From assembly GCA_031393885.1 (NCBI GenBank), contig JANMWG010000193.1, positions 1-52,310 of the forward strand: 52,310 nt of DNA, in the 5' to 3' direction. A model generated the notes under the pieces. That model searched no databases. It worked only from the letters and a program-made list of their open reading frames with translations, and was not told the DNA's origin. Origin of the DNA: Betaproteobacteria bacterium (lineage in GTDB: Bacteria > Pseudomonadota > Gammaproteobacteria > Burkholderiales > Ga0077523). Numbering within the stretch: the stretch's first letter is position 1; each line of letters starts with the position of its first letter. This document shows, piece after piece, positions 7,159-44,482 of this stretch. The position numbers were made by a program, and so were the translations under genes.

Positions 7159-8532
7159 ATGAACCAGCATTACAACCTGATCTGTATCGGTGGCGGCAGC
7201 GGTGGCGTCGCCACGGCGAACCGCGCCGGCTCCCACGGCGCGAAAGTGGCCCTGATCGAGGCCGACCGCCTCGGCGGCACCTGCGTCAATGTAGGCTGCG
7301 TGCCCAAGAAGATCATGTGGAGCGCGGCGCAGTTCGCCCACGCATTCGACGACGCCGCGGGCTATGGGTTCTCGGTGCCCGGCTATCGCTTCGACTGGGG
7401 AGCCCTGGTTTCGGCGCGCGACGCCTATGTTCGCGACCTGAATGCCGCGTATGGCCGGTATCTCGCCTCCAACCAGGTCGAGGTGATCCGGGGATGGGCA
7501 CGATTCGCGGGGCCGAACGCCATAGTCGTCGACGGCCGTGAAGTCACCGCCGACCAGATTCTCATCGCCACCGGCGGGCACCCGATCGCGCCGCCGATTC
7601 CCGGCGCGAACCTGGGCATCGACTCCAACGGCTTCTTCGCCCTGAAGCAGCAGCCGCGCCGACTGGCGGTGGTGGGGGCGGGCTACATCGCGGTCGAAGT
7701 CGCCGGACTGATGCAGGCGCTCGGTACCGCCGTGACGCTGTGCCTGCGCCGCGATCACTTTCTGCACGGCTTCGATCACATGCTGAGCCGGGCACTGATG
7801 ACGCAGATGCAGGCCGACGGCGTCGATATTCGGCTGCATCTGTTCCCGGCTGGAGTGGAACGCGACGGCGACGACCTGTACCTGATCGCCGGGGACGGCA
7901 TGCGCCACGGTCCGTTCGACACGATCCTGTGGGCGATCGGACGCCGGGCCAACACCGCTGCGCTCGATCTCGGCAGGGCCGGCGTGTTCGCGCACGAAAG
8001 CGGCGTCATTCCGGTCGATGCGTGGCAGGTCACCAATGTGCCCAACATCCACGCCGTCGGCGACGTCATCGGCCATCACGAACTCACGCCGGTGGCGATC
8101 GCCGCCGGGCGACGCCTCGCCGACCGGCTGTTCGGCGGCAAGCCCGACCGTCGCCTTGACTACGACCGTATTCCAACGGTGATCTTCAGTCATCCGCCGA
8201 TCGGCACCGTGGGTCTCACCGAGGGCGAAGCATTCGCTCGTCACGGTGCCGGCGCCAAGATTTACGAAACCAGCTTCACGCCGATGTACCACGGCTTCAC
8301 CGACCGGAAGGTGAAGATGTCGATGAAACTGGTCGTGGCCGGCCCCGACGAGACCGTCGTCGGTTGCCACCTGATCGGACCGGGCGCGGACGAGATGCTG
8401 CAGGGGTTCGGCGTTGCGGTGCGGATGGGCGCGACCAAGGCGAATTTCGACGACACCGTCGCGATCCATCCGAGCGCATCGGAAGAAATGGTCACCATGA
8501 AAACCGCTCGCCCCGCCCTGGCGAACACATGA
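7159..8532 (+). CDS. gor: Glutathione-disulfide reductase
   Basis: GGGSGG, redox-active [20 protein letters not shown]-terminal AIHPSASEE. Confidence 0.96.
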
Positions 8533-8680
8533 CCCCCCCCAGGCTTGCTGCGCTTCGCCACCCCCGAGGGGGCGCAGTTCGCTTGGCGAGCTTCGGCCGG
8601 ACATGGACAGTCCCTGCGGACTGTCCGTGCCTGCAGAAGGACAGCGGACGCCGGCCGCTGGCGGCCCGGCGCTCACTGCT
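8529..8680 (+). repeat. Stop-codon-anchored structured repeat carrying the nested 68-bp module (8595-8662)
   Basis: ATGACCCCCCCCAGGCTTGCTGCGCTTCGCCACCCCCGAGGGGGCGCAG...; the module matches 31042-31109 and 38022-38089. Confidence 0.85.
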
Positions 8681-8753
8681 CCGATGCGGGCAAAAAGATC
8701 GTTCTGACGATTGCCGGCGCAAACCTTCACCGTTACCGATTCACCACCAGGAG

Positions 8754-9143
8754 ATGAGCATGGACATCGAACGCAAACACATCGGCAAGCGCCTTTCGCA
8801 GGTCGTCATCCACAACGACACCATCTACCTCGCGGGCATCGTCGCGAGCGACCCGGTCCCGGACGACGTCGGCGCCCAGGTCACCGACATCCTGCACCAG
8901 ATCGACCAGCACCTGAACGAAGCCGACAGCGATCGGTCGCGCATCCTGACAGCCACGATCTGGCTGGCCGACATGTCTTACTACACCGCGCTAAACGTGG
9001 TGTGGGATGCGTGGATCCCGGAAGGTCACACCCCGGCCCGCGCCTGTGTGGAATCGACGCTGGCCAACCCGAAATACAAGGTCGAGATCCGGGTGATCGC
9101 GGCGGTCGGGCACGGCGCGCACGGTAGCATGGGCATGGCTTAG
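8754..9143 (+). CDS. RidA/YjgF/UK114 family protein
   Basis: IYLAGIVA, ILTATIWLADM, LNVVWDAW, PARACV, KVEI; AGGAG RBS. Confidence 0.9.
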   Translation: MSMDIERKHIGKRLSQVVIHNDTIYLAGIVASDPVPDDVGAQVTDILHQIDQHLNEADSDRSRILTATIWLADMSYYTALNVVWDAWIPEGHTPARACVESTLANPKYKVEIRVIAAVGHGAHGSMGMA

Positions 9144-9158
9144 CCGCCTTTTCGCCGC

Positions 9159-10982: not shown

Positions 10983-11182
10983 CGTTGCACCACGCTCGCG
11001 CGATCAACGCGCGGGGCGCACCATCACGACGCAACGCCGATCACGCACGGCCGGTCGGCGAGCCATGCCGATGCGATCGGACCGATAGCGCGACTGCCGA
11101 TGCCGACGGCAAATTTCACGCAATAACACTGACGGTGTTTCTAACAGGCGCGCCGGACACTATTTAACAACATCTGATACGC

Positions 11183-11220
11183 TGCGAAACGCTTGCGGTT
11201 AGAACCCGACGCGTTTCGCA
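11183..11220. promoter_or_regulatory. Inverted repeat/hairpin in the leader of the PQQ dehydrogenase
   Basis: TGCGAAACGC...GCGTTTCGCA with perfect 10-bp arms and an inner GGTT/AACC stem. Confidence 0.45.
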
Positions 11221-11265
11221 CGACACCGTGCGAAGCCCCCGAAAATCCACTGGAGATTGCCTGCC

Positions 11266-12993: not shown

Positions 12994-13053
12994 CCTTCTG
13001 GCAACACCTCGTGACAACGGGGGCGGCGCACGCCGCCCCCGCTCCTGACATAC

Positions 13054-13416: not shown

Positions 13417-13444
13417 TTTCACCGTCTCGCCTCGGGCCACCGGT

Positions 13445-13780: not shown

Positions 13781-13864
13781 TGCCGCCTCGAATCAAGGCC
13801 GGTGCCGACGGTACGCGAATCGTGCACGATTGCGCTTTCCACGATCGCGACCAAGGCCTGCGTC

Positions 13865-16966: not shown

Positions 16967-16988
16967 TCGGGATCCGTCCCGGTAGTGG

Positions 16989-17088: not shown

Positions 17089-17445
17089 ATGAAGCACATC
17101 AACTGGGATCAGATTCCGTTCGAGCAGATCAATCCGCATTTCCGCCGCAAGCTCGCCTGGGATGGCGACGTGATGGTGGCGCGCACCGATGTCGAAGGTG
17201 GCTACGTGGTGCCATTGCACTCGCACCCGAACGAGCAGGTCACCTGGGTGATGAGCGGCAAGTGGCGTTTCCATCTCGACAACAAGGTGGTCGAGGTGGG
17301 CCCTGGCGAGATGATCTTCATCCCCAAGAACGTGCCGCACACGGTCGAGGCGGTGGAAACCCTCGTGGCCTACGACATCTTCACGCCACCGCGGAAAGAC
17401 TGGCTGGAGGGCGGCGACGCGTATCTGCGCGAACCCAAAGGTTGA
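17089..17445 (+). CDS. Cupin domain protein
   Basis: PLHSHPNEQ...IPKNVPH metal-binding motifs, FTPPRKDW; GAGGAG RBS. Confidence 0.9.
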   Translation: MKHINWDQIPFEQINPHFRRKLAWDGDVMVARTDVEGGYVVPLHSHPNEQVTWVMSGKWRFHLDNKVVEVGPGEMIFIPKNVPHTVEAVETLVAYDIFTPPRKDWLEGGDAYLREPKG

Positions 17446-17495
17446 CCCCACCAGGCTTGCTTCGCTTCGCCACCCTTTGAGAGGGTGCAGCGGCA
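17442..17495 (+). repeat. Short stop-anchored repeat copy
   Basis: TTGACCCCACCAGGCTTGCTTCGCTTCGCCACCCCTTTGAGAGGGTGCAG begins on the cupin TGA. Confidence 0.7.
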
Positions 17496-17640
17496 CTCGG
17501 TGGACAACCTGGAGGCCTTCAGGCAGTTCTACTTGGAGTACCCACAACTGATTTCCGAGACAGTGCGTAGCCAATTGGCGCTGCCCTCGATTTCCGAGAG
17601 GGTGTCTCGGAAATCCGCCGCGGCCGGTGTCACAGTGCAA
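17485..17640 (+). pseudogene. Fragment resembling the DUF1016/YhcG N-terminal domain
   Basis: SVDNLEAFRQFYLEYPQLISETV...ISERVSRKS resembles the YhcG S-x-x-N-L-x-x-x-R-Q-F-Y-x-x-Y-P motif; the sequence is AT-richer. Confidence 0.55.
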
Positions 17641-23151: not shown

Positions 23152-23210
23152 CCGCCCTTGAGGACGCTGGCCCCCTTCAAGGGAGTGGCGAGCAAAGCGA
23201 GCCTGGGGCG
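23152..23210 (-). repeat. Diverged repeat copy
   Basis: Minus strand CCCCAGGCTCGCTTTGCTCGCCACTCCCTTGAAGGGGGCCAGCGTCCTC. Confidence 0.65.
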
Positions 23211-23411: not shown

Positions 23412-24119
23412 CTAATGAGACTCCACGGTGTCGATACCCACGAACTCATCGGCCAGTGCAGCGATGCCCTCGTGCGCCACCTCGCGGATGAAGGCGCCCT
23501 TCTGGATGACCAGCACCCGGTCCGACAGCCGGCCGATGAACTCGATGGACTGCTCCACCAGCACCACGGTCAAGCCCCGGCTTTGCCGCAACCGCAGCAG
23601 CGTGTCGCCGATCTCGTCCACGATCGAGGGCTGGATGCCCTCGGTGGGCTCATCGAGCAGCACGATCTTCGGTTCCCCGCACAGGCACCGCGCCAGTGCC
23701 AGGATCTGCTGCTCGCCGCCGCTCAACACCCCGCCGGCGCGCTCCAGGATCGGTTTCAGCCGCGGGAAGTCGTCGAGCACCGCCGCGATCACGGTGTCCG
23801 GTGTCGCGCTGTGGATCGCCCCCATGCGCAGGTTCTCCTGCACGCTCAAGCCGCCGAAGATCTCGCGCCCCTGCGGTACGAATCCCAGCCCCAGCCGCGC
23901 GCGCTGGTGCGGCGCCGCCAGGCTCACGTCGTGGCCCCCGAGAATGACCTTGCCCGCGGTGGACTTGATGTGCCCCGCAAGGGTGCGCATGAGCGTGGTC
24001 TTGCCCATGCCGTTGTGGCCGAACACGCCCACGAACTCACCCTGCTTCACCGTCAGGCCGATCCCCATCAGGATCGGGATGCGGCCGTAGCCGGCTTTAA
24101 GCCCGGTCACTTCGAGCAT
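23412..24119 (-). CDS. ABC transporter ATPase (LivF/UrtE-like)
   Basis: GHNGMGKT, VPQGREIF, LSGGEQQ, LLDEPTEGIQP. Confidence 0.92.
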   Translation of the reverse strand: MLEVTGLKAGYGRIPILMGIGLTVKQGEFVGVFGHNGMGKTTLMRTLAGHIKSTAGKVILGGHDVSLAAPHQRARLGLGFVPQGREIFGGLSVQENLRMGAIHSATPDTVIAAVLDDFPRLKPILERAGGVLSGGEQQILALARCLCGEPKIVLLDEPTEGIQPSIVDEIGDTLLRLRQSRGLTVVLVEQSIEFIGRLSDRVLVIQKGAFIREVAHEGIAALADEFVGIDTVESH

Positions 24120-24124
24120 GTCGG

Positions 24125-24358
24125 TGTCCGCAGGGTTGCCCGCCGGGGCCATGCCCCCGAGAACGCCGAACGAAGGGAATTTCTCCAACGAAGGGGCAGC
24201 ATCCGCAGGGTTTCCCGAGGATTGCTGCGCCCCCTCGGGGAAGCCGCAGCGCAGCGCAGGCTGGGGGTGGAAGTCACGGTGCCCACAGGGCTCCCCGAGG
24301 ACACCGGCCCCCTGGAGGGGGAAGCCGCAGCGCAGCGCAGGCTGGGGGTGGACGTCAC
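24125..24358 (-). repeat. Two tandem repeat copies plus 3' tail, read as an 83-codon mini-ORF (24358-24107)
   Basis: Two GTGAC(G/T)TCCACCCCCAGCCTGCGCTGCGCTGCGGCTTCCCC units; the first GTG lies 1 nt after the upstream TGA. Confidence 0.85.
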
Positions 24359-24359
24359 C

Positions 24360-25106
24360 TCAGGCTACCTTGCGCTTGCCGAGGTACACGTCGCGGACGC
24401 GCTGGTCGCGCAGCACGATCTCGGCGTCGTCTTCCATGAGCACCTGTCCCTGGTGCAGCACGGTAACCGTGCGCGCGATCATGCGGATGAACTGCATGTC
24501 GTGCTCCACCACGATCAAGGACCGCGTCCCGCGCAGCCGGATCACCAGCGCGGCCAGGTGCTCGACCTCTTCGTGCGTCATCCCGGCTGCCGGCTCGTCG
24601 AGCAGGATCAGGTCGGGCTCGGCCGCGGTCACCATGGCCAGTTCCACGATCTGCCGCTGGCCGTGCGCCAGTTGCCCCACCATGCGGTTGGCCAAGTGCG
24701 CGATGCCCATGGTCTCGAGCACTTGGTCCACCGCCGCCGGGATCTCCCAGCGCCGTCCGCCCACGGTGGCAATACGCCGCTTCACCGCCAGCCACACGTG
24801 CTCGCGCGCGGTCAGCCCGTTGTACAGGCTGGGCACCTGGGTCTTGATGCCGATGCCGCGCCGCGCGATGTCCACGCTGGGCAGGCCGCCAATCGAGGCA
24901 TCCTTGAACCGGATCTCGCCCGCGCTGGGTTTAAGTTGCCCGGTCAGGCACTTGAAGAACGTGCTCTTGCCCGCGCCGTTGGGCCCCACCAGGCAGCGCA
25001 ACTCGCCCGCGGCAATGCCGAAGTCGATCCCGCGCAGCACCTCGACCCCGCCGAAGCGCATCACCAGGCCACGGGTTTCGATGACCGGGTTTGACACCGG
25101 GGTCAT
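24360..25106 (-). CDS. ABC transporter ATPase (LivG/UrtD-like)
   Basis: GPNGAGKST, LAHGQRQ, LLDEPAAGM, VEHDM. Confidence 0.92.
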   Translation of the reverse strand: MTPVSNPVIETRGLVMRFGGVEVLRGIDFGIAAGELRCLVGPNGAGKSTFFKCLTGQLKPSAGEIRFKDASIGGLPSVDIARRGIGIKTQVPSLYNGLTAREHVWLAVKRRIATVGGRRWEIPAAVDQVLETMGIAHLANRMVGQLAHGQRQIVELAMVTAAEPDLILLDEPAAGMTHEEVEHLAALVIRLRGTRSLIVVEHDMQFIRMIARTVTVLHQGQVLMEDDAEIVLRDQRVRDVYLGKRKVA

Positions 25107-26261: not shown

Positions 26262-26377
26262 CGCCTCACAACGCCGCCTCTCAGAACCATCGGGGATATT
26301 CCACCGTGGTCGTGGTCGGCGGCCGGCACCGCTCGGCTGACTGTCGATCCCCCTGCGGGGGCCCCGCGCCAGGTGCC

Positions 26378-27244
26378 TCACAGGGCCCGCCGGAAGAACC
26401 GGCCGGTGATGCCCTGCGGCAGGATGCGCAGCAGCACGATCGCCGCGAACAGCAAGGTGATCTCCCCCACCACGGGCGTTGCCACGAAGGTCGCCAGCGT
26501 GTTCAGCGACCCCAGCAGCGTGCTCGCCGACAGCGTCCCGGCAATGATCGCCGACCCGCCGCTGATTACGGTGATGAACGCCTTGGCCACGTACGCCACT
26601 CCCATCGTGGGCAGCACCCCCGATAGCGGCGCGATCAAGGCGCCTGCCAAGCCGCTCAATGCCGCACCGGCCCCGAAGGTCACCATGTACACCGTGTTGG
26701 TGCTGATCCCCAGCGACGCGGCCATCGCCGGGTTCTGCATCGTCGCGCGCGCGATCAACCCGGCCTTGGTCAGGCGCAGGATCGCCATCAAGCCCCCCAG
26801 CACCGCCACCACGATCACCACCAGCACCAGCTCATACAGGCTGGTCCGGTATTGCCCGATGGTCACGCCGCCCAGCGGCGCCGACACCCCGGTGGTGGTG
26901 TTGCCGAAGATCATGGTCGCCGCGCCGATGAGCAACAGGCTCAGGCCCCAGGTGGCCAGCATGGTGTCGATCATCCGGCCATACAGGAACCGGATCACGG
27001 TGCGCTCCACCACGATCCCCACCACCCCCACGAACAGCGGTGCCAGCAGCAGCATCGCCACCCACAGGTTCACCCCCCACCTGGTGGCGTAGATCACCGC
27101 ATAACCGCCCAGCATGATGAACTCGCCGTGCGCCAGGTTGATCACCCGCATCATGCCGAAGATCACCGCCAGCCCGACGCTGATGAGCGCCAGGCTCGCC
27201 ACCGCGGTGATCACTTGCAAGATGATGATGACAACCAGGTCCAT
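26378..27244 (-). CDS. ABC transporter permease (LivH/UrtB-like)
   Basis: GLAVIFGMMRVINLAHGEFIMLG, LATWGLSL, RATMQN. Confidence 0.9.
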   Translation of the reverse strand: MDLVVIIILQVITAVASLALISVGLAVIFGMMRVINLAHGEFIMLGGYAVIYATRWGVNLWVAMLLLAPLFVGVVGIVVERTVIRFLYGRMIDTMLATWGLSLLLIGAATMIFGNTTTGVSAPLGGVTIGQYRTSLYELVLVVIVVAVLGGLMAILRLTKAGLIARATMQNPAMAASLGISTNTVYMVTFGAGAALSGLAGALIAPLSGVLPTMGVAYVAKAFITVISGGSAIIAGTLSASTLLGSLNTLATFVATPVVGEITLLFAAIVLLRILPQGITGRFFRRAL

Positions 27245-27277
27245 CGCTACTACCCCCCCGACAAATCTTTGCAGCAG

Positions 27278-27363
27278 GCCAGCGCCCACAGGGTCCCCCG
27301 AGGACGCTGTGCCCCCTCGGGGGGAAGGCGAAGCGCAGCGCAGCCTGGGGGGGACGTCCTCAT
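27278..27363 (-). repeat. Stop-anchored repeat without the nested module; start of a 37-aa mini-ORF (27363-27250)
   Basis: ATGAGGACGTCCCCCCCAGGCTGCGCTGCGCTTCGCCTTCCCCCCGAGGGGGCACAGCGTCCTCGGGGGACCCTGTGGGCGCT. Confidence 0.85.
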
Positions 27364-28607
27364 ACTTTTACGTCGATGACGTATTGTTGATTTTCGTTCG
27401 GGTTCTTCTTCAGGTCGCATACCGCCGCTGTGTCGGCCGGCTTCTGCTGGCTGAAGCTCTCCAGCACCTTGAACTGCCGGTTCTGCGCTTCGGCAAGATA
27501 GACGTCGAGCACGGCATGGTGGGTCGCCGGATCGATGGTGGTCTTGCCGCCCGGGCCGGTGAAGCTCATGTTGCCTTCCAGCGCGTCGATCACCTTCATC
27601 CGATCGACCGTTCCCGCCTTCTTCACCGCAGCAGCCCACAGGTTGAACCCGTGGTAGGTCATCATCGCGAGTTCGGTCAATGGCGCGGCCTTCTCGCCGA
27701 AGCGCTGGTAATAGCGCTTGATGAACTCGGCGTTGGCCGGCGACTTCACCTCCTGGAAGTACGCATACGCAGCCAGGATGCCGTTGTGCTCCTCCGGGTT
27801 GGTCACCACGTGCTCGTTGCCCACCCCGAAGGTGGTCGACGCCATCGGGATCTGCTTCTTCATGCCCGCGGCCGCCCACTGCCGATAGAACGAGATGTGC
27901 GACCCGCCGACGAGCACCGACATGACGATGTCCGGCTTGGCCGCCTGGATCTTCTTGATGGTCGGCCCGAAGTCGGTCACGTCCAGCGGGAAGAAGTCGG
28001 TCTGCACGATGGTGCCACCGTTGTCCTGGGTGTATTTCTTCACCCACTTCGAGGTGATCTGGCCATAGTTGTAGTCGGCCGCGAGTACGTAGATCTTCTT
28101 GCCGTTGAACTTCTTCATCGCATACGGAATCAGCTTTTCGACCGTCTGCGCGGGCGTGGAGCCGGTGCAGAAGCAGTTGCGGTCGCACACGCCACCTTCA
28201 TACTGCGTGTTGTAGAAATACAGCGTGTTGAAGCGCTTGAGCACCGGCCGGATCGCCTCGCGCGAAGCCGAGGTGATGCCCGCGTGCACCACCGCCACCT
28301 TCTCCTTGGTGGCCGCTTCGGTGGCGTATTGCGTGTAGTACTGGATGTTCGACTGCGGATCGTAGTTGATCAGCTTCAGTTGCCGCCCCAACAGCCCGCC
28401 GGCGGCGTTGGCTTCTTCCACCGCCAGCGTGAGCACGTCGATCATCGGCCGACCGTAGATGTCCAGCCCGCCGGAGGCATCGTGGATGCCGGCGATCTTG
28501 ATGTCGTCGGCCGCGTGCAGGTCGCGGATGAACCATGGCCCGGCGGCAGCAGCGGTGCCGACGGCGGCGGCTTTGAGAATGCGTCTGCGGTCCAGCTTGG
28601 TATCCAT
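27360..28607 (-). CDS. Urea/short-chain amide-type ABC substrate-binding protein (UrtA/FmdD/AmiC-like), Tat-exported
   Basis: DRRRILK, GGLLGR, TSASRE, YNTQYEG, AADYNYG. Confidence 0.88.
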   Translation of the reverse strand: MDTKLDRRRILKAAAVGTAAAAGPWFIRDLHAADDIKIAGIHDASGGLDIYGRPMIDVLTLAVEEANAAGGLLGRQLKLINYDPQSNIQYYTQYATEAATKEKVAVVHAGITSASREAIRPVLKRFNTLYFYNTQYEGGVCDRNCFCTGSTPAQTVEKLIPYAMKKFNGKKIYVLAADYNYGQITSKWVKKYTQDNGGTIVQTDFFPLDVTDFGPTIKKIQAAKPDIVMSVLVGGSHISFYRQWAAAGMKKQIPMASTTFGVGNEHVVTNPEEHNGILAAYAYFQEVKSPANAEFIKRYYQRFGEKAAPLTELAMMTYHGFNLWAAAVKKAGTVDRMKVIDALEGNMSFTGPGGKTTIDPATHHAVLDVYLAEAQNRQFKVLESFSQQKPADTAAVCDLKKNPNENQQYVIDVKV

Positions 28608-29950: not shown

Positions 29951-30976
29951 ATGAACGCGCCGGCACGCCCACCGCGGCTCTCGGTCCTCGACCAGTCGCC
30001 TATCATCCGCGGCCATTCACCCGCCGAAGCGGTCCGCCGCACCGTCGAGCTCGCGATCGAGGTCGAACGTCTCGGCTATCACCGCATCTGGCTCGCCGAA
30101 CATCACAACATGCGCGGGCTGGCCGATCCTTGCCCCGAGATACTGCTCACACGCGTGGCTTCCGCCACCAGCCGCATCCGCGTCGGCACCGGCGGCGTGC
30201 TGCTGCCCTACTACAGCGGGCTCAAGGTGGCCGAGATCTTCCGCATGCTCGAGGCGCTGTTCCCGCAGCGCATCGATCTGGGCATCGGCCGGGCACCGGG
30301 CGCCGATTCGGTCACCGCACGGGCGCTGTTCAACGGGGCGTTCTACGACTTCGACCAGTTTCCGGTGCATGTCCAGGAGACGGTCGCGTTGCTCGACAAC
30401 GCCCTGCCGCCGGACCACCCGTATGCCGGCATCGTGGCCATGCCTGCCGGCACGAGCGCACCCGAGGTCTGGCTGCTCGGCAGTTCCGACTACAGCGCCC
30501 GGCTCGCCGCCGCGCTCGGCCTGCGCTTCTCGTTCGCGCACTTCATCAGCGGCCATGGCGGCGATGCCGTGACGCGCCTGTACCGCCGCGACTTCCGTCC
30601 GTCCGCACGCGAGTCCGCACCGGCGGCCATCCTCACGGTATTCGCGATCTGCGCCGAAACCCAGGTCGAGGCCGAACTGCTCGCCGCCTCCATCGACTTG
30701 CGCCGTTTGCAGATGGCGCGTGGCCAGGACGGCCCGATCGTGCCGGCCGACGAGGCGATCGCGATGCCCTATTCCGACAGCGACCGTGCGCTCATCCGGC
30801 GCGAGCGTGCCCGCGCGGTCGTCGGCACCCCTGAAAGCGTGCGCGATCGCATCCTCGAGCTGCAGGCGGCGTTCGAGGCCGACGAGATCATGGTGCTCAC
30901 CATCACCGGCAGCTACGAATCGCGGATCGCGTCCTACGCCCTGCTGGCGCAAGCATTCGGGCTGGTAGCAGCTTGA
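29951..30976 (+). CDS. LLM-class (luciferase-like) flavin-dependent oxidoreductase
   Basis: LSVLDQS, GYHRIWLAEHH, RIRVGTGGVLLP, RIDLGIGRAPG, VWLLGSS. Confidence 0.92.
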   Translation: MNAPARPPRLSVLDQSPIIRGHSPAEAVRRTVELAIEVERLGYHRIWLAEHHNMRGLADPCPEILLTRVASATSRIRVGTGGVLLPYYSGLKVAEIFRMLEALFPQRIDLGIGRAPGADSVTARALFNGAFYDFDQFPVHVQETVALLDNALPPDHPYAGIVAMPAGTSAPEVWLLGSSDYSARLAAALGLRFSFAHFISGHGGDAVTRLYRRDFRPSARESAPAAILTVFAICAETQVEAELLAASIDLRRLQMARGQDGPIVPADEAIAMPYSDSDRALIRRERARAVVGTPESVRDRILELQAAFEADEIMVLTITGSYESRIASYALLAQAFGLVAA

Positions 30977-31135
30977 CGCCCACCCCCCGGCTTCGCTGCG
31001 CTACGCCTTCCGCCAAGTGGGCGCAGCGTCCTCGGGGGTGAGGCCGGACACAGACAGTCCCTGCGGACTGTCTGTGCCTGCCGAACGACAGCGGCCTCCG
31101 GCCGCTGGCACCCTGCGGATGCTGCCCCTTCGCTC
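30973..31135 (+). repeat. Stop-anchored repeat with the nested 68-bp module (31042-31109)
   Basis: TTGACGCCCACCCCCCGGCTTCGCTGCGC...GCAGCGTCCTCGGGGGTGA[module]ACCCTGCGGATGCTGCCCCTTCG. Confidence 0.88.
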
Positions 31136-31175
31136 GCGGACCGTCCGTCGCCTGCCGAACTGAAGGCGGTTCGGC

Positions 31176-32396
31176 GTGCCGACCCGGGCAGTTCCCTCCG
31201 AACGTCTCCTGCTCGGCCTGCTGGCGGCGGTCCAGGTGACGCACATCATGGACTTCATGGTGATGATGCCGCTCGGCCCGCAATTGATGCGGGTGTTCGG
31301 TACCGGGCCGCGCGAGTTCGGCCTGGTGGTCTCGGCCTATACGTTCGGCGCGGCGGCAGCCGGGTTTCTCGCCGCCTTCCACATCGACCGCTTCGACCGC
31401 AAGGTGGCGCTGCTGGGCATCTATGCCGGTTTCTGCGTCGCGACAGCGCTGTGCGCGATCGCCCCCGGCTTCTGGACGCTGCTCGCCGCAAGAGTCGCGG
31501 CGGGCGTGTTCGGCGGCGTCGCCGGCGCCGTGGTCTATGCCATCGTCGGCGACCTGATTCCGGAGACCCGGCGCGGCACCGCCATGGGCGTGATCGCGTC
31601 GGCCTTCTCGATATCGTCGGTGGTGGGCGTGCCCGCCGGCCTGTTCCTGGCCAACCACTTCGGGTGGCGGGCGCCCTTCGTCCTGCTGGCCGTATCGGGC
31701 ACCGTGATCTGGGTCGCCGCCTGGCGCACGTTGCCGCGCATCGACCGCCATGTGGATAGCGGACCGGGGCGCCCGGCCATCGCCCAGCTCGGCGCGATCT
31801 TCGCTCAGCGCAACCACTTGAATGCGTTTGCCCTGACGGCAACGCTGATGTTCGCCGGCTTCTCGGTGATCCCGTTCATCAGCCCCTACATGGTCGCCAA
31901 TGTCGGGTTGAAGGAAACCGATCTGCCCTGGTTGTATTTTTTCGGCGGGCTCGCGACGCTGTTCAGCTCGCGACTGATCGGTCGGCTGACCGACCGCTAC
32001 GGCCGAAAAAGGGTATTCCGTATCCTCGCGGCGATTTCGATCATACCTTTGCTGGTCACGACCAATCTGCCGCCGGTGCCGGTGCCCCTGGCGATCGCGG
32101 CCTCCGTCCTGTTCATGGTCTTCGTATCGGGTCGCTTCATTCCCCTTATGGCGCTGGTCACCGCCAGCGTCGACCCGCGCCTGCGCGGCAGCTTCCTGGC
32201 ATTCAATGCCTCCATCCAGCAATTGTTCGCCGGCCTGGCGGCCTTCGCCGCGGGTCTCATCCTGGGCCATTCCGTCGACGGCCGGATCACGCACTACAAT
32301 CTGGTCGGCGCGCTCGCGGTGATCGCCACCTTCACCTGCATCTGGCTGGCCGGCCGGGTCCGGCCGGCCATGTCGGTGGTCGGGGCGCCGCGATGA
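31176..32396 (+). CDS. MFS transporter (DHA1-like)
   Basis: About 12 TM helices, IDRFDRK and GRLTDRYGRK motif A, RRGTAMG. Confidence 0.9.
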   Translation: MPTRAVPSERLLLGLLAAVQVTHIMDFMVMMPLGPQLMRVFGTGPREFGLVVSAYTFGAAAAGFLAAFHIDRFDRKVALLGIYAGFCVATALCAIAPGFWTLLAARVAAGVFGGVAGAVVYAIVGDLIPETRRGTAMGVIASAFSISSVVGVPAGLFLANHFGWRAPFVLLAVSGTVIWVAAWRTLPRIDRHVDSGPGRPAIAQLGAIFAQRNHLNAFALTATLMFAGFSVIPFISPYMVANVGLKETDLPWLYFFGGLATLFSSRLIGRLTDRYGRKRVFRILAAISIIPLLVTTNLPPVPVPLAIAASVLFMVFVSGRFIPLMALVTASVDPRLRGSFLAFNASIQQLFAGLAAFAAGLILGHSVDGRITHYNLVGALAVIATFTCIWLAGRVRPAMSVVGAPR

Positions 32397-35830: not shown

Positions 35831-37935
35831 GCTCGACCCCGCTCGAACGTGTCCTGTACGTCGAGGACGACCCCGACATCCGCGAAGTCGCCCGGCTGGC
35901 GCTCGAAGTGGTCGGCGGCCTCACCGTCCTTGCCTGCGAATCCGGCGAAGACGCGCTGGCCCGCCTTTCCGGCTTCCGGCCCGACCTGCTCCTGCTCGAC
36001 GTGATGATGCCGGGCATGGATGGGCCGACGTTGCTCGGGCGGTTGCGCGAGACTGCCACGGGTCGTGATGTGCCGGCCATCTTCATGACCGCCAAGATGC
36101 AACCCGACGAAGTCGCCGCTCTGGAGCGCATCGGCGCCATCGGCGTGATTCCGAAGCCGTTCGATCCGATGCGGCTGACCGAGGAAGTCCGCGCCATCTG
36201 GACGGCGCACCAGGCCCGCCGTCCCGATACGGCGACCGCCGACGACCCGCGAAAGGCCACCATCGACCAGACGGTGAATCGGCTGGCGCTGCGGTTCTTC
36301 CACAAGCTTCCCGCGCGCATCGCGGAGATCGGCGAACTATGGGCGGTCCTGAAGAGTGCCGCGACCGACCGCCAGACCCTGGCCGAACTGCATCGCAAGG
36401 TGCACAGCCTGACCGGCACCGCCAGCACCTTCGGCTTTGCCGCGGTCGCCGCTGCCGCCCGATCGCTCGAACGCGCCCTGCTGCATCTCCTGGGCACCGA
36501 CGCCGTACCCGACAGCGCGCGGCTCGAGCCGGTCGAGCCGCTCTGGGCCGCGCTCGAGGCGGCAGCCATCGGTACGGCCCCCCGGTTCGATCCGGTGGAG
36601 GACGAGGCCGCCGAGATGGCCGAGATGGCCGAGCCCGCCGCGATCACGACCAACCGCTCGGCCGAGGGGCGGCGCGTGGTCTACCTGCTTGGCACCGGCA
36701 TCGATTCGCTCGAAGGACTGCGCCACCAGCTCGAAAGCCATGGCTACGACGCGCGAGCGTTCGATTCGATCGACTCGATCGAGGCGGCGACGCAGCGCCT
36801 GCCGCCCACCGCCATCGTGAGCGACGGCGACATGGTCGTGGGGCAACTCGCCGGCGCCGCCCTGGCAGCGCGCCTCGCCCAGCACCGGATCGAGCGCCCG
36901 CCCCTACTGTTCATCTCCGACCGCGGCGACCTGCGCACCCGCCTCCAGTCGGTCAATGCCGGCGCCGCTGCGTTCTTCGCCCGGCCGCTTCGGCTTGCCA
37001 GCCTGGTCGACAAACTCGACCAGGTCGGCGCCCGCTTCATCCCCGAACCGTTCCGGGTGATGATCGTCGAGGACGCCGAAGATCAGGCCGCCCTGTACGC
37101 CGCCATCTTGCGCAACGCCGGCATGCGGGTGTCGGTCATCGCCGATCCCGCCCGATTGCTCGAAGAGATCGACGACTTCCATCCGGAGCTCATCCTGATG
37201 GACATGTATCTGCCCGAATGCTCGGGCGACGACCTCGCCCGCGTGGTGCGGCAGCTCGACGCCTTCGTCGGCATCCCGATCGTGTTCCTGTCGGTCGAAG
37301 ACGATTTCGATCGACAGATCAATGCCATCGTGCGCGGCGGCGACGAGTTCCTCACCAAACCGATCAAGCCGGCACAGCTGCTGGCGGCGGTGAGCGGGCG
37401 CATTGAACGCTATCGGATCTTGCGCACGCTCATGGTCCAGGACAGCCTGACCGGCCTCAACAACCATTCACGGTTGCAGCAGCTGCTCGAAAGCGAAGTC
37501 GCCCGCGCGCTGCGCGAGGACACCCGGCTCGCGATCGCGATGATCGACATCGATCACTTCAAGAACGTCAACGACACCTACGGACATCCCACCGGCGACC
37601 GCGTGCTGCGCACGCTTGCCCGCTTTGTGCGCCAGAGCCAGCGCCAGAGCGATATCGTCGCGCGCTACGGCGGCGAGGAGTTCGCCATCGTCATGCCCAA
37701 CACCGACGAAACCGACGCCATGGCCGTGATCGACCGCCTGCGCAGCCGCTTCGCCACCCTGGTTCACGAGGGCGAAAAGGGCGAGACCTTCCAGGTGACC
37801 TTCAGCGCCGGCGTCGCGACGCTGGGCGGCCGCAACAATGCGCGCGAGCTGTTGCTCGCCGCCGACGACGCGCTCTACCGCGCGAAGGAACAGGGGCGCG
37901 ACTGCGTGGTGCTGGCCGCGTCGGACGCCGAGTAG
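35827..37935 (+). CDS. REC-HPt-REC-REC-GGDEF response regulator diguanylate cyclase
   Basis: ATGA overlap with the kinase; VEDD/LLDVMMP; HPt VHSLTG; LMDMYLP; I-site RQSD; GGEEF. Confidence 0.9.
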   Translation: MSSTPLERVLYVEDDPDIREVARLALEVVGGLTVLACESGEDALARLSGFRPDLLLLDVMMPGMDGPTLLGRLRETATGRDVPAIFMTAKMQPDEVAALERIGAIGVIPKPFDPMRLTEEVRAIWTAHQARRPDTATADDPRKATIDQTVNRLALRFFHKLPARIAEIGELWAVLKSAATDRQTLAELHRKVHSLTGTASTFGFAAVAAAARSLERALLHLLGTDAVPDSARLEPVEPLWAALEAAAIGTAPRFDPVEDEAAEMAEMAEPAAITTNRSAEGRRVVYLLGTGIDSLEGLRHQLESHGYDARAFDSIDSIEAATQRLPPTAIVSDGDMVVGQLAGAALAARLAQHRIERPPLLFISDRGDLRTRLQSVNAGAAAFFARPLRLASLVDKLDQVGARFIPEPFRVMIVEDAEDQAALYAAILRNAGMRVSVIADPARLLEEIDDFHPELILMDMYLPECSGDDLARVVRQLDAFVGIPIVFLSVEDDFDRQINAIVRGGDEFLTKPIKPAQLLAAVSGRIERYRILRTLMVQDSLTGLNNHSRLQQLLESEVARALREDTRLAIAMIDIDHFKNVNDTYGHPTGDRVLRTLARFVRQSQRQSDIVARYGGEEFAIVMPNTDETDAMAVIDRLRSRFATLVHEGEKGETFQVTFSAGVATLGGRNNARELLLAADDALYRAKEQGRDCVVLAASDAE

Positions 37936-37974
37936 CAGCCTGCGATCGAACACCTGACCCCGACAGCCTGGGAG

Positions 37975-38244
37975 TGCTGAACGAAGGGACTTAAGAAACG
38001 AAGGGGCAGCGCCCACAGGGTGCCAGCGGCCGGAGGCCGCTGTCGTTCGGCAGGCACAGACAGTCCGCAGGGACTGTCCGTGTCCGGCCTCACCCCCGAG
38101 GACGCTGCGCCCCCTTGGGGGAAGGCGAAGCGCAGCGCAGCCTGGGGGTGGACGTCACCTGTCCCTCGAGGGGGAAGGCGAAGCGAAGCGCAGCCTGGGG
38201 GTGGTCGTCAACTCGGCGCAGCGCAGCCTGGGGGTGGGCGTCAC
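37975..38244 (-). repeat. Three stacked repeat copies (two truncated, one full-length with module 38022-38089)
   Basis: Three (G/T)TGACGNCCACCCCCAGGCTGCGCT starts on the minus strand, the first 2 nt after a TAA. Confidence 0.88.
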
Positions 38245-38246
38245 CT

Positions 38247-38966
38247 TTAGAACCGAAAGCCGACCTTGCCGCCGAAGGTATTGGCGCTGCCGGTGCGATC
38301 GGCCTCGACCGCCACGTTGAGCAGCCCGAAGTTCACGTTCAGGCCGACGAACACGCGGTTCAGCCCGAACGATTCGCTCGCCAGACTGCCGACGCCGCGC
38401 GCCGAGCTGCTGACCCAGGTGCGCCCCACGCCGCCATAAGGCGTGAAGATCAGGAAGCCCTTCGAGATCAACAGGTCGAGACCCTTGCTGTCGAAATCGA
38501 GCTGATCCACGCCGGTGACCTTGCTGTAGCTGCCGCGCAAGCCGATCGCTGGCAGCACGGTGTTGCCCGCGATGAACGAATAGCGCAGCTCCCCACCCCA
38601 GGAGCGGATCGACGTACCGGGCACCGTGGACAGCGCAACCCCCACATCGAACCCGAAGGGCAGCCCCTTGTTGAGCCGCAGGCTGGGCACGGTGAGTGAA
38701 GAGAACGAATCGCTACCCGAGCTCGCCTTGTCGAGAATCGCGGAATTCTTCAGCGAGGTATTGGTGACCGCCACGCCGACATCGAAGCCGCTCAGGCCCT
38801 GAGGCTCGGTCGGGATCAGCGCCTTGTACGACAAGGCGGCACCCAGGTCTTCGGACAACAGCCGGAACTCGCTCTGGTTGAGCAACTGGAGCCGGTCGAG
38901 TTCGCCGGCGCCGGCCGGCAACACCACGGACGCCAGCAACGTCACACCCACCCTTGCAAGCCTCAT
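38247..38966 (-). CDS. Putative outer membrane beta-barrel protein
   Basis: Signal peptide, amphipathic strands, C-terminal GKVGFRF. Confidence 0.75.
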   Translation of the reverse strand: MRLARVGVTLLASVVLPAGAGELDRLQLLNQSEFRLLSEDLGAALSYKALIPTEPQGLSGFDVGVAVTNTSLKNSAILDKASSGSDSFSSLTVPSLRLNKGLPFGFDVGVALSTVPGTSIRSWGGELRYSFIAGNTVLPAIGLRGSYSKVTGVDQLDFDSKGLDLLISKGFLIFTPYGGVGRTWVSSSARGVGSLASESFGLNRVFVGLNVNFGLLNVAVEADRTGSANTFGGKVGFRF

Positions 38967-39100
38967 CCGGCCTCCCTGGCGCTGGACATGAATCGGATGC
39001 TCGCGGGCACGCGGCGAGCCCTCCGAGAATCTAGCACAGCCCCGATTGGACGCGGTTCGTCATTGCGTCGCGCCGCGCGATGCGCCGACAATCGCGCCCC

Positions 39101-41091: not shown

Positions 41092-41159
41092 TCGCCTGCT
41101 CGGCCTGCCCGCAGAACATGTTGGCCATCGACGGCGTGGGCTGTACGCCGACCGAAGCG

Positions 41160-41290
41160 CCACCGACTTTCCCGCGGTCTCGAGCAGAACCGGCTTGAAC
41201 TTGTCGATCATGTCGGGCGTTATGCCGAGCTTGGCGAAGGCTGACTTCAGCCCCGCCGTGAGTACACTTCCGTATCGGTCGCCGGCTTGC
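41160..41290 (-). pseudogene. Remnant resembling a DUF2780 C-terminus
   Basis: LKSAFAKLGITPDMIDKFKPVLLE with no matching N-terminus; family name from recall. Confidence 0.45.
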
Positions 41291-41343
41291 ACGTCACCAG
41301 CGCCAGATGGGCACGGGGAAACTCGCCGCACGAACACTTTGCG

Positions 41344-41934
41344 TCAGCGCATGAACCCATCGAGGCGATGCATCGCTTTCGCCAGGCTCGGCGCACGGGC
41401 CGCCGCGCGAAAAGGATCCCAGCGATTCAGCACAAAATCGCACCGGCGAGCGTTGTACTTCGGTCCGACATTCGCCCTCGAACCTGGCGCCGGCGCGATC
41501 TCCGCCGCGAGACGGCGGCTACGACTGCGGCGCGCCAGATTCACCAACTCGCGCTTTGGGTGTTCAAGATCTTCGGGGCGTGCCGGCACCTTCACCTGCG
41601 CCACGAGCAACTCTGCGGCCAACCCGACAGCGTCAGCGATAAGCCACGCTTCGACAGTGCGCACCACCACCCTGAACAGCAATGACGCCGGCCGAACCTC
41701 GAGCCCCCCTGTTTTCAGGAGCGTCGGCGCGCAGGCTGTTCGATCAAGATCGACCAGCACCACGTGAGGCAACACATGGCACGCGTTACGATAAACCGGG
41801 ATTTTGAGTCGTATGGCGTCAACGCCACCCGTCACGATCGGGGCGTAGATTCGAAAACCCCTGCCAGATGCCGATAGCAAGCGTCGCATGACCGCCATGC
41901 TCAACTCATCTTCGGCGACCAGCATCAAATCCAT
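41344..41934 (-). CDS. TOPRIM-like nuclease (DUF4276/RloB-like)
   Basis: VAED, VDLD (DxD), VEAWLIAD, APSL; lies downstream of an ABC/AAA ATPase. Confidence 0.7.
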   Translation of the reverse strand: MDLMLVAEDELSMAVMRRLLSASGRGFRIYAPIVTGGVDAIRLKIPVYRNACHVLPHVVLVDLDRTACAPTLLKTGGLEVRPASLLFRVVVRTVEAWLIADAVGLAAELLVAQVKVPARPEDLEHPKRELVNLARRSRSRRLAAEIAPAPGSRANVGPKYNARRCDFVLNRWDPFRAAARAPSLAKAMHRLDGFMR

Positions 41935-41947
41935 CGACAAACCGTGC

Positions 41948-42655
41948 TCAGAGCAGCAATGACAACTGCTCGACGCTATTCGGCTTTACCTTACTCAATA
42001 CGACCTCGGCAACCGAATAGCCGGCTTCGACCAGGGCTAACTCCTGCTCGGTGGCCCCCAGTACCCGGGTGCCGTCTTTCGAGGGCTCGAGCCGCAACAC
42101 CTCGCGCGGGTCTATGCTCTTGTCCGACAACATCGCCTCGCTGTGGGTGGTGATGAAAACCTGTCGGCGGTGCTTCGCCTTGCGCTGCAGATCCCAGATG
42201 AGCGGCGGTATCCGGCGCACGATATCCTCGTTCAGCGATAACGCCGGCTCTTCCAGCAAGAGCAACGAGTCGCCGTCGAGCAGGCTCCACATGATGCCAA
42301 GCAACCGCAGCGTCCCGTCGGAGAACTGTTCTTCACGCTGCCAACCGGCATCCGGCCGCCAGTGTTCGTACATCGCCTCCAGATGCGGACGGCCCGTAGC
42401 CACATCACGACGGAACTTGAGGTCGCGCATGTTGGGAACGCAGGCACGGAGAGCCGCTTCGATTTTCTTCAGTCGTGATTCGCGGGTCCGATCCGGCGTG
42501 TTGGCGATGCGCTCCAGGAACGACTGACCGAACGGATCGCCATCGAGCCGAGCCGCGCCGACGATCTCGCTGTACTTGAGCAGTTGCGGCACCAGATGCA
42601 AGTAAGTGAGCGTCGAAAAAAATTGGCAAGGCGCGCCGGGTTTGTATGCCGGCAC
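41948..42655 (-). pseudogene. 5'-truncated ABC/AAA_21-type ATPase
   Basis: Signature FSDGTLR, Walker B LLLEEP and H-loop ITTHS are present; no Walker A is present in or upstream of the ORF. Confidence 0.75.
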
Positions 42656-42851
42656 CGGATCAACCAGTCCCTTGCAGGGAAACGGCTTGGCTCACGATGC
42701 GCTCCGGAGCCAGTCAGCCTCGACTCCACGCCATCGCGGACCGGACCTGCTCAGCGGCTTTCCTGCATCACGGTGCCATCCCGTCACTGTGTAAACTGCA
42801 AACGCGTTAGCGGTACTGCGCCCACGTTCCTTCTACACAGGCAATCGATCG

Positions 42852-44381
42852 ATGCACAGCACGTTCAGGCAGTTGCTTTCCACGGGCGCCGACACCGCCA
42901 TTGCGATCTCGGCACCCGGCCGCACCGCCTTGTCGTATCGCGAGCTGCGGGCGCAGGTCGACAACACGCTCGCCAGCCTCAACACGCTGGGCGTCGGGCG
43001 CAACGACCGCGTGGCCATCGTGCTGGCCAACGGTCCGGAGATGGCCGTGTGCTACATGGCCTGCGCATCCGGCACCACCAGCGCACCGCTGAATCCGGCC
43101 TATCGCGCCGATGAATTCGAGTTCTATCTGTCCGATCTGAACGCGAAGGTGCTGATCGTCGAGCGCGACAGCGCCTCTCCCGCCATCGAGGTGGCGCGCA
43201 AACTCGGGGTGCGGGTGGTGGACCTGCTGGTGGCGGACGGCGCGCTCGCGGGCAGCTTCACCCTGGTGCCGCGCGACGGCAACGCCACGACGCCTGCCGC
43301 CACGCCGTCCGGCGGCTACGGCGAGCCCGGTGACATCGGCATGGTGTTGCACACCTCAGGCACCACCTCGCGACCAAAGATCGTGCCGCTGTCGGTGCGC
43401 AACCTGTGCGCCTCGGCCGCCAACATCGGCCACACGTTGCAGTTCACCGCTGCCGACATCGGCCTGAACATCATGCCGCTGTTCCACATTCACGGCCTGA
43501 TCGCGGGCGTGCTGGCGCCGCTGTCGGCGGGCTCGCAGGTGTTCTGCACGCCGGGCTTCAACGCGCTCAAGTTCTTCGCCTGGATGGACGAGGCGAAACC
43601 CACCTGGTACACGGCCGTGCCCACCATGCATCAGGCCATCGTCGGCCGTGCCAAGGGCAATGCCGAGGTGATCCGGCGCAACCCGCTGCGCTTCCTGCGC
43701 TCGTCGTCGTCGTCGATGCCGCCGCAGGTGATCCGCGACGTCGAAGAGGTGTTCGGCTCGCCGCTGATCGAGGCCTACGGCATGACCGAAGCCACGCACC
43801 AGATGGCGTCGAACCCGTTGCCGCCGAAGGCGCGCAAGCCCGGCACCGTGGGCCTGTCCGCGGGCCCCGAGGTGGCGATCATGGGCACCGACGGCGCGCT
43901 GCTCGGCGCCGGCGCCGTGGGCGAGATCGTGATCCGCGGCCCCAACGTCACCTCGGGCTACGAGAATAATCCGAAAGCCAACGAAGAAGGCTTTCTGAGC
44001 GGCTGGTTCCGCACCGGCGACCAGGGCACGCGCGACGCCGACGGCTACATCAGCATCACCGGCCGCCTGAAGGAGATCATCAATCGCGGCGGCGAAAAAG
44101 TCAGTCCGCGCGAAATCGACGAGATCCTGATGGATCACCCGGCCGTGGCCCAGGTGGTGTGCTTCGGCATGCCGCACCCCAAGCTGGGCGAGGAAGTCGC
44201 CGCGGTGGTGGTGCTGAAGGAAGGCATCGTCGCCACCGATCGCGAGCTGCAGGCGTTCGTCTCGACCCGTGCGGCCGACCACAAGGTGCCGAAGAAGATC
44301 CTGTTCATGGATGAAATCCCCAAGGGCGCCACCGGCAAGCTGCAACGCATCGGCCTCGCGCAGAAGCTGGGATTAGGATGA
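42852..44381 (+). CDS. Oxalate-CoA ligase-like acyl-CoA synthetase (AAE3/Pcs60/Oxs type)
   Basis: LHTSGTTSRPKIVPL, PLFHIHGL, TWYTAVPTMHQ, EAYGMTEATHQMASNPL, GKLQR. Confidence 0.85.
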   Translation: MHSTFRQLLSTGADTAIAISAPGRTALSYRELRAQVDNTLASLNTLGVGRNDRVAIVLANGPEMAVCYMACASGTTSAPLNPAYRADEFEFYLSDLNAKVLIVERDSASPAIEVARKLGVRVVDLLVADGALAGSFTLVPRDGNATTPAATPSGGYGEPGDIGMVLHTSGTTSRPKIVPLSVRNLCASAANIGHTLQFTAADIGLNIMPLFHIHGLIAGVLAPLSAGSQVFCTPGFNALKFFAWMDEAKPTWYTAVPTMHQAIVGRAKGNAEVIRRNPLRFLRSSSSSMPPQVIRDVEEVFGSPLIEAYGMTEATHQMASNPLPPKARKPGTVGLSAGPEVAIMGTDGALLGAGAVGEIVIRGPNVTSGYENNPKANEEGFLSGWFRTGDQGTRDADGYISITGRLKEIINRGGEKVSPREIDEILMDHPAVAQVVCFGMPHPKLGEEVAAVVVLKEGIVATDRELQAFVSTRAADHKVPKKILFMDEIPKGATGKLQRIGLAQKLGLG

Positions 44382-44482
44382 GCCTCCCCCCCAAGCTCTC
44401 GACGTTCGCTACCCCCCCAGGGGGGCCCGACGCCCTTGGGGCGGCCCGGCGGGCGCCGGCGCACGGGCAAGTTGCATCGTGA
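44378..44482 (+). repeat. Stop-anchored repeat forming a 34-aa bridging mini-ORF
   Basis: Reads MSLPPKLSTFATPPGGPDALGAARRAPAHGQVAS*; ATGA overlaps the ligase stop and GTGA overlaps the panE start. Confidence 0.8.

Follow-up and report, generated by a model that had tools for sequence, protein, structure and literature searches.

A family of small repeats placed behind stop codons in a betaproteobacterial genome, with open frames that may carry translation on to the next cistron

MIRUs, the mycobacterial repeats closest in kind to the elements treated here, are portrayed in excerpts of one report as units of 40-100 bp present in 40-50 copies, with G+C-rich inverted repeats, with filled and empty sites that show tetranucleotide direct repeats, and with open reading frame (ORF) ends that overlap the adjacent genes (PMC3184786). 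REPs of Escherichia coli lying at most 15 nt from a stop codon stall ribosomes and lower translation, as excerpts of a further report have it (PMC12306157), while the RPE of Rickettsia, ERIC, the 107-bp Correia element, and YPAL appear in excerpts of another as MITEs (miniature inverted-repeat transposable elements) of 100-200 bp whose contiguous ORFs can be co-translated with or fused to genes (PMC2229807). Here, we analyze a repeat family first noticed at seven sites in a stretch of 52,310 nt from a Betaproteobacteria bacterium (assembly GCA_031393885.1, contig JANMWG010000193.1), which is referred to below, at its full length, as the window. The original prediction, made from the letters of the window alone, described a non-autonomous repeat that sits at stops and stop/start junctions and acts as a translatable bridge between operon genes. 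According to our analysis, the repeat is probably (at roughly 55%, judging from sequence comparisons) a lineage-restricted family of small non-autonomous mobile elements which insert in the sense direction behind stop codons and carry a relay that spares the next cistron.

Placement and anatomy of the repeat

The window is contig C115 of a 4.69-Mb draft genome (G000) that comprises 546 contigs and has 65.5% G+C. Genes were called with a crude codon-usage model of our own combined with dynamic programming, which returned 4,495 genes and 86% coding DNA; stop positions are robust in these calls, start positions are not. A profile hidden Markov model (HMM) of the head of the repeat was searched across the genome with nhmmer, taking the A of CCCCCAGG as the register column, and the repeated DNA in gaps was delimited independently of the head HMM by all-against-all BLAST of the intergenic gaps. 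The head HMM gave 570 matches genome-wide, at least 536 of which carry the anchor column, nine of them inside the window. Read in the orientation of the upstream gene, the copies open with a 5' leader of consensus (T)GAGAGG-TGA-CGCCCACCCCCAGG, which contains a TGA, often two in two frames, together with an NTG start codon overlapping that TGA.

Tandem arrays account for 137 of these 536 heads as internal members, and a further 35 lack an upstream gene on the same contig; for the remaining 364, the nearest upstream feature is a co-directional stop in 321 cases, a gene start in 33, and the inside of a gene in 10. For 278 of these 321 heads, the distance from the end of the stop to the anchor base is 8-25 nt, peaking at 12 and 17 nt, which places the stop within the 5' leader or immediately ahead of it. 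At the 12-nt peak (the offset-0 class, 80 cases) the gene uses the element's own TGA, and at the 17-nt peak (the offset-5 class, 81 cases) the gene stop is followed by two bases and then by the element's TGA. The same two peaks appear in 58 loci from other assemblies, where a strongly coding frame ends 8-23 nt upstream of 65 of the 78 non-tandem heads. Stop adjacency is far beyond chance, and the siting claimed in the original prediction is thereby borne out by hundreds of anchored heads.

Each of the 315 gaps that contain heads holds them in one orientation only, and in co-directional gaps 202 arrays run with the gene direction and 14 against it (p = 7e-44; the copies are related by descent, so that this and every other p-value reported here is overstated). 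Heads were found in 83 of 357 convergent gaps, in 216 of 1,942 co-directional gaps, and in 16 of 462 divergent gaps, the last being avoided. At most 3 nt separate the stop from the repeated DNA in 167 of the 202 co-directional gaps and, among convergent gaps, in 64 of 83, a genome-wide count that goes the way the original prediction expected. The median space left downstream of the repeat is 50 nt in co-directional and 27 nt in convergent gaps, and the free space is smaller upstream than downstream in 163 gaps, with the reverse in 19 (p = 1e-29; 71 and 8, respectively, in convergent gaps, p = 1e-13).

The anchored genes end in TGA (208), TAG (52), and TAA (31), which matches the genome-wide proportions (2,463, 750, and 328), and the TAG and TAA stops mostly precede a full NN-TGA-C leader. 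Since these two stops are anchored in proportion and are followed by the full leader, a plain TGA target does not suffice as the whole story, and a TGA-only target was rejected as the sole explanation.

The head consensus, in the same orientation, is (T)GAGAGG TGA CGCCCACCCCCAGGCTGCGCTGCGCTTCGCCTTCCCCC-loop-GGGGGCGCAGCGTCCTCGGGGGACCCTGTGGGCGCTGCCCC. The short form is a unit of ~81-84 nt, the long form (~190 nt) has two additional inner hairpins within the second stem (37975-38163, 30973-31160, and 8527-8682 in the window), and in a third form the tail terminates in ...GGCCCGGCGNNNNNCTGA. Optional tail modules are of the type CCCCTTCGCTTC.GA.GTCCCTTCGTTCAGCA, and (C)TGA is the end of many tails. 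In the head-to-tail arrays, whose internal units retain TGAC, spacings of 81 and 84 nt are common. The left end, CGCCCAC CCCCC AGG, is by eye only imperfectly similar to the complement of the right end.

Stems were named by eye, and their pairs were then counted, on a 317-row MAFFT alignment. Hairpin 1 (CCCCC/GGGGG) is nearly invariant, and covariation is directly visible in stem 2, where the arms read GCAGCG/CGCUGC (n = 50), GCAGCA/UGCUGC (n = 32), GCCCCG/CGGGGC (n = 18), or GCAACA/UGUUGC (n = 15), with CCGGUG/CACCGC and CCAGUG/CACUGU as further arm pairs. For three stem 2 pairs, both sides have changed in 78 of 317 copies, which corresponds to a handful of independent switches and not to 78, since the subfamilies share descent. 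The paired fraction of stem 2 is 0.80, compared with 0.67 in column-shuffled alignments (maximum of 0.69 in 300) and at most 0.37 when the partner is slid. RNAalifold returned no structure on the same 317-row alignment. The long form folds at -107.3 kcal/mol (z = -4.4 against shuffles), and a U-tract behind the hairpins is absent by eye, so that these are not typical intrinsic terminators. Rfam gave no match in the window at gathering score, and at a permissive threshold only chance-level matches were obtained for 37900-38300 (at most 25 bits, with cut-offs of 44-70).

The short-read assembly is broken by the family, with 47 of 1,092 contig ends lying within 200 nt of a head. In four public metagenome runs, the summed depth is 300-5900 over repeat bins (window 24280-24455 and 27272-27447) and ~10-40 over most adjacent gene bins, and contigs of these runs terminate at repeats; both observations fit a very high copy number in those communities.

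The seven sites of the window and their empty counterparts

The copies in the window are given below with their strands.

8527..8682, + strand: long-form copy with head, hairpin 1, inner hairpins, and class-II-like tail; head HMM match at 8527-8586
8533-8682, + strand: repeated region of this first copy, depth up to 166
17442..17503, + strand: truncated, diverged head copy, its TGAC being the stop (17443-17445) of a cupin gene (17089-17445)
24107..24362, - strand: two tandem short units with tail modules; heads at 24361-24292 and 24277-24213
27250..27365, - strand: one short unit, immediately behind the TGA (27362-27360) that ends a periplasmic binding protein gene
30973..31163, + strand: long-form copy, its TGAC (30974-30976) being the stop of a luciferase-like gene
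37964..38249, - strand: array of a 33-nt head-only unit, a 53-nt unit, and a long form with tail (38249-38216, 38213-38163, and 38163-37975)
44378..44482, + strand: diverged variant; repeated region 44385-44459, depth up to 49

When the ORFs were recomputed, all seven positions, the start/stop overlaps, and the mini-ORF ends of the original prediction were recovered unchanged. At the first site, the TGAC of the copy supplies the stop (8530-8532) of a Pyr_redox_2 gene (7159-8532), an ATG at 8529 overlaps this TGA, and the frame is open to the RidA stop at 9143. The copy at 17442 offers a TTGA with a 12-aa ORF, and the next gene is convergent. The array at 24107..24362 lies between the TGA of an ABC ATPase gene (24360-25106) and the ATG of the next ATPase; an 83-codon ORF that runs from the GTG at 24358 to 24107 spans the whole array and ends inside this next ATPase, for whose start homology points to ~24119. 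Behind the periplasmic binding protein gene, a 37-codon ORF from the ATGA at 27363 stops at 27250, 5 nt short of the permease ATG at 27244, and a native Shine-Dalgarno-like stretch is retained downstream of the insert. The luciferase-like gene is stopped by the element's TGA at 30973, 13 codons earlier than in the related genome G001, and two chained mini-ORFs (30973-31041 and 31038-31163), which share a GTGA, extend to within 12 nt of the MFS start at 31176. The array at 37964..38249 follows the TAA (38249-38247) of gene 38247-38951 at a distance of 3 nt (AGG), in a convergent context and with a GTG at 38244; the array has a 94% match to 30974-31132. Finally, gene 42852-44381 ends in a TGA at 44379-44381, and the variant at 44378..44482 takes up the space from there to the panE GTG (44479), with a 34-codon ORF that runs from an ATGA to a GTGA lying on the panE start; the head HMM has no match at this diverged copy, though the copy is repeated elsewhere. 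Pfam searches on the neighbouring genes returned Ribonuc_L-PSP, BPD_transp_2, two ABC_tran, MFS_1, and ApbA/PanE, with which the gene names of the original prediction agree.

The family is present in only three of 25 genomes of the genus and is missing from the other 22, and relatives provided empty counterparts of two junctions. At the ABC-transporter junction, genome G015 reads GTC TGA C ATG, where the window has the TGA, two units plus tail, and C ATG. At the following junction, the sequence in G001 is TAG ACGGGGGTAGGCC ATG, and the window reads TGA, one unit, GGGGGGGTAGTAGCG ATG; this site (27250..27365) is empty in G001, G015, and G007. Given these empty sites, the repeats are insertions, and they stand in register with the stop; aligning the junctions with relatives that lack the insert had been put forward along with the original prediction. 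For the 42850-45500 junction, no orthologues were found in G001, G007, and G015 at E 1e-30, and at the first junction (8529) the contig of G001 ends immediately past the stop. Among the contigs of the four metagenome DNA runs, none spans an empty site.

Insertion and stop register were likewise demonstrated in loci from other assemblies, ~90-95% identical to this genome, which were compared for indels of at least 75 nt. Thirty such indels were found and 18 involve the repeat; removal of three sites filled in both genomes and of one duplicate left 14 independent filled/empty pairs. Twelve of the 14 lie at a gene stop, and for each of these the two alleles encode proteins that terminate at the identical codon; the site of pair #15 is a TGA out of frame, 5 nt downstream of a TAA stop, and that of pair #29 a TGA that does not serve as a stop. 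An (N)TGA is present at both ends of the insert in four pairs (#4, with ATGA; #15, with CTGA; #19; and #29). In pair #26 (L062 and G000:C469:3117-3314), TCC TGA ACA ATG CCC stands opposite AGC TAA ... GTG GCT within a background that is 98% identical, a patch of raised divergence that suggests homologous recombination as a further way in which filled alleles move.

Three genes with matches to the Y1 transposase family (PF01797) were considered as candidates for the mobilising enzyme.

G000:C480:42883-43737: full-length Y1 transposase match
G000:C325:19611-20549: full-length Y1 transposase match
G000:C15:6804-7001: shorter Y1 transposase match

The two full-length proteins have 284-312 aa. No head copy was found in the flanks of any of the three genes, the nearest one (on C325) lying behind a gene two genes downstream. 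Relatives of both full-length genes occur in 17 of the 25 genus genomes, non-carriers of the repeat included, and neither gene was found in the carrier G001, which is 81% complete. The Y1 genes were therefore rejected, for lack of support, as the mobilising enzyme, being unflanked by the repeat and showing a distribution in the genus that does not track it.

A fragment of ~120 nt that ends an open frame was detected in the hairpin-1 loop or at contig starts (G000:C228:31695-31814, C297:3049-3168, C518:9-128, C92:1-108, and C111:11388-11450), and possibly this is the terminus of an insertion sequence with the repeat as its target, in the way that REPs are targeted by elements of the IS110 family. 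Its tail of 50 aa, in which Pfam found nothing, presumably resembles the C-termini of the IS110 family; the single PF02371 match, on C168, is unrelated to the fragment.

Some other intergenic sequences also came to light. In the repeat-free genome G007 (L012, G007:C1:95500-95950), the orthologue of gene 7159-8532 is followed by a palindromic, G+C-rich sequence of another kind (CCCCCGACTGCGTCGGGGG..., CCCCCAGCTTGGCTGGGGG). A second, unrelated family consists of palindrome arrays of the type CCCTCTCCCGAGGGGAGAGGG (G000:C363:10755-10939, G000:C297:4597-4811, and G000:C125:931-1154), which are absent at the same sites in loci of a close relative (pairs #2, #21, and #24). Within the window, three short intergenic stretches (6260-6294, 23165-23208, and 26330-26365) match five or six other intergenic regions and lie outside the family studied here.

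Open frames across the repeat and the explanations they allow

An NTG overlaps the element's TGA in 371 of the 536 heads; in the 404 heads that have the TGA, the preceding base is G in 195, A in 110, T in 66, and C in 33. Where homology defines the downstream start of a co-directional filled site, the stop is joined to that start by a single ORF or by two chained ORFs in nine of nine cases, the final TGA overlapping the ATG in five of them, and the five co-directional junctions of the window are likewise bridged. When gaps of 60-260 nt were compared genome-wide, 72 of 137 with the repeat and 135 of 824 ordinary ones contained a chain that extends to the predicted start. The comparison of bridging frames with shuffles, which the original prediction had named among the checks that could refute its claim, gave 36% for shuffled interiors against the 72 of 137 observed, with p = 1e-4 only if the copies are taken as independent.

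Starts and open frames were moreover found to depend on the genomic context. An NTG is present at the stop in 155 of 176 co-directional arrays and in 46 of 69 convergent ones, an ORF chain covers the entire repeat in 146 of 176 and 40 of 69, respectively (p = 1e-4), and ATG accounts for 64 of 166 overlapping starts in co-directional but 4 of 47 in convergent arrays (p = 4e-5). Stop triplets are rarer in the NTG frame, with 28 over six mutational targets compared with 65 over eight in the other two frames (p = 0.016). On our reading, these patterns point to a family that is built to be readable through and is kept so by selection inside operons.

A ribosome relay across the repeat, i.e., translation of the mini-ORF that passes on the coupling, is what we infer from these features. 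The upstream protein would terminate at its own stop or at the TGA of the element, and the terminating ribosome would restart at the overlapping or adjacent NTG. It would then read through the unit, melting the hairpins on its way, and stop at or beside the downstream start, so that an insertion into an operon would leave the next cistron expressed. The open frames also have a practical side, since they mislead gene callers, which extend starts into them and report spurious small proteins; our own codon-usage calling put the start of the downstream ATPase inside the repeat at 24152 (gene 23412-24152), where homology supports ~24119. Automatic annotations of genomes with such repeats are likely to contain both kinds of error.

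Several results weigh against the relay. At convergent ends there is nothing to relay, and the repeat is anchored there as tightly as elsewhere (64 of 83); coupling therefore cannot be the reason for the stop siting, and selection for coupling was rejected as the cause of the anchoring. The translatable bridge put forward in the original prediction is partly supported: the enrichment of bridging chains and the context dependence of the starts speak for it, whereas coupling does not account for where the copies sit. G+C-rich shuffles already bridge in more than a third of trials, an open frame in the founder would be inherited by its descendants, and among NTG-bearing copies the ORF cover is the same across contexts (146 of 155 and 40 of 46, p = 0.11). 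A simple bridging ORF exists in only 46 of 188 co-directional gaps with predicted starts. Of 48 copies, 27 have a distance from the head NTG to the tail TGA that is divisible by 3, but only 12 of the 30 distinct lengths are so, the frame test losing significance once copies of equal length are collapsed; the spacings within tandem arrays favour multiples of 3 only slightly. As regards mobility, the 10 filled/empty pairs other than those with (N)TGA at both ends show either no duplication or replacement of a short native spacer, with no single clean target-site duplication, the stop codon itself differs between alleles in six of the 14 pairs, and no transposase linked to the family and no parent element were found among the Y1 and PF02371 matches of the genome that were examined.

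A REP-like structural element, whose hairpins matter as DNA for a recombinase or as RNA and whose mini-ORFs are a by-product of high G+C and of an open founder, is a possible alternative to which we give clearly less credence than to the relay; such hairpins might protect mRNA 3' ends or might stall the terminating ribosome and thereby tune down the upstream gene. The compensatory changes that hold stem 2, the great stability of the long form, and the tight anchoring at convergent ends all agree with it, as do the frequency with which shuffled interiors bridge and the weakness of the frame test after lengths are collapsed. In the excerpts of the pertinent reports, a REP whose distance to the stop is under 16 nt lowers translation (PMC12306157), stable structures just behind stops are widespread and influence re-initiation (PMC7518266), and REPs serve as insertion-sequence targets (PMC8450116, PMC12288879), to be compared with the foreign ~120-nt fragment in the hairpin-1 loop at five places. 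However, such an element would not be expected to show more start codons, a larger ATG share, and more complete ORF cover where a downstream gene follows, nor a rarity of C at the start-codon position, nor bridges at all nine checked operon junctions, five with an ATGA overlap. Two copies, moreover, lie within one ABC-transporter operon whose junction in a relative is TGA C ATG, where a pure roadblock would silence the gene that follows. Inverted REP pairs and a flanked RAYT gene are also lacking.

Placement could in addition be the residue of selection after random or TGA-trinucleotide-aimed insertion, an explanation that we regard as improbable. It would account for the two filled sites at non-stop TGAs with (C)TGA at both ends (#15 and #29), for the 22 of 74 unanchored copies that have another TGA, TAA, or TAG within 9 nt before the element's TGA, and for the TGAC kept in tandem-internal units. 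It is at odds with the anchoring of TAG and TAA stops in genome-wide proportion, mostly with a full NN-TGAC leader, and with the persistence of anchoring within 3 nt in convergent gaps, where insertion farther downstream should be harmless; intergenic TGA sites are, by a rough estimate that was not computed, far more numerous than stop codons. Least credible of all is the view that the mini-ORFs are genuine small protein genes, or that hairpin-driven stop readthrough yields C-terminal extensions. There are indeed open frames of 20-80 codons with a start codon and 10 of the 536 heads inside predicted genes, but this is also the full extent to which genes read into heads, and copies use different frames through the same DNA (MKLPPPGCAALRL... 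or MKRPSQASLRFAF..., rejoining the same tail), their lengths and modules vary freely, and most genomes of the genus do without the family.

A more far-reaching proposal, which goes beyond the sense insertion and sparing relay favoured above and which we hold to be rather doubtful, is that the element homes to translation stops as such (TGA, TAG, and TAA), on the sense strand and with nucleotide-exact placement, even where no gene follows downstream, with a built-in re-initiation relay hiding it from operon expression. Homing to stops without a plain DNA motif would mean that the insertion mechanism can sense the end point of translation. A single-strand-specific enzyme that accepts T-purine-purine is one possible route, acting on the non-template strand where the departure of ribosomes from the transcript exposes it, and an RNA copy is another. 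We know of no bacterial transposition mechanism that explains nucleotide-exact placement behind all three stops, and the stop placement is the aspect most deserving follow-up.

Comparison with known repeat families

The high copy number, the G+C-rich intergenic palindromes often found close behind stops, and the role as insertion-sequence target are shared with REP, BIME, and REPIN elements, as far as these are characterized in the excerpts consulted. REPs and REPINs, in contrast, are of ~20-40 nt and form inverted pairs, whereas the units described here have 81-190 nt, are arranged directly head to tail, and keep a single orientation in 315 of 315 gaps. Placement on the stop is nucleotide-exact and strand-specific in the present family, and the Y1 transposase genes, unlike those of REP/REPIN-RAYT systems, are unflanked by the repeat. 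With the MITEs of the RPE, ERIC, Correia, and YPAL type, going by what excerpts say of them, the family has in common small size, lack of autonomy, transcripts that fold into long stem-loops, and open frames. Those MITEs are depicted there as in-frame gene fusions or as scattered intergenic elements, mostly with TA duplications and with clear terminal inverted repeats; the present family avoids gene interiors (10 of 536 heads) and is tied to stop codons.

The likeness to MIRUs goes further, although it is one by description, since the host belongs to a different phylum and kinship in sequence is not expected. On the evidence of the excerpts, both are short, often tandem units (~81-84 nt here) that lie in operon intergenic regions in gene orientation (202 and 14 arrays here), both have G+C-rich internal inverted repeats, and in both mobility is apparent from filled and empty sites. 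Both also have an internal ORF; in MIRUs its ends overlap the neighbouring genes, by which the insert is coupled with little effect on the neighbour, and in the present family the start lies on or beside the upstream stop and the frame in many gaps reaches the downstream start, so that it may be coupled in a similar way. The differences, again within what the excerpts cover, concern copy number (at least ~536 here, ~40-50 for MIRU) and the fixed end, which here is the 5' end on the upstream stop, also at convergent gene ends, while MIRUs are described at start codons with a -4 overlap; further points that set the present family apart are its modular long form and the clear compensatory changes in one stem. 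The original prediction did not recognize the repeat as a described family. In our literature search no description of the family surfaced, which is no proof that none exists, but the same coupling logic has already been set out, in the excerpts available, for mycobacterial MIRUs (PMC12548453, PMC3184786).

The kind of element is thus known from MIRUs, and the present family is apparently new, much larger, and placed behind stops independently of the stop-codon type. If the relay is real, it would constitute a second, independent, and much larger natural case of a selfish repeat that dodges polarity via its own coupled mini-ORF. With hundreds of copies, compared with some forty for MIRU, the family offers enough copies, contexts, and filled and empty sites for termination-reinitiation over long structured spacers to be put to the test.

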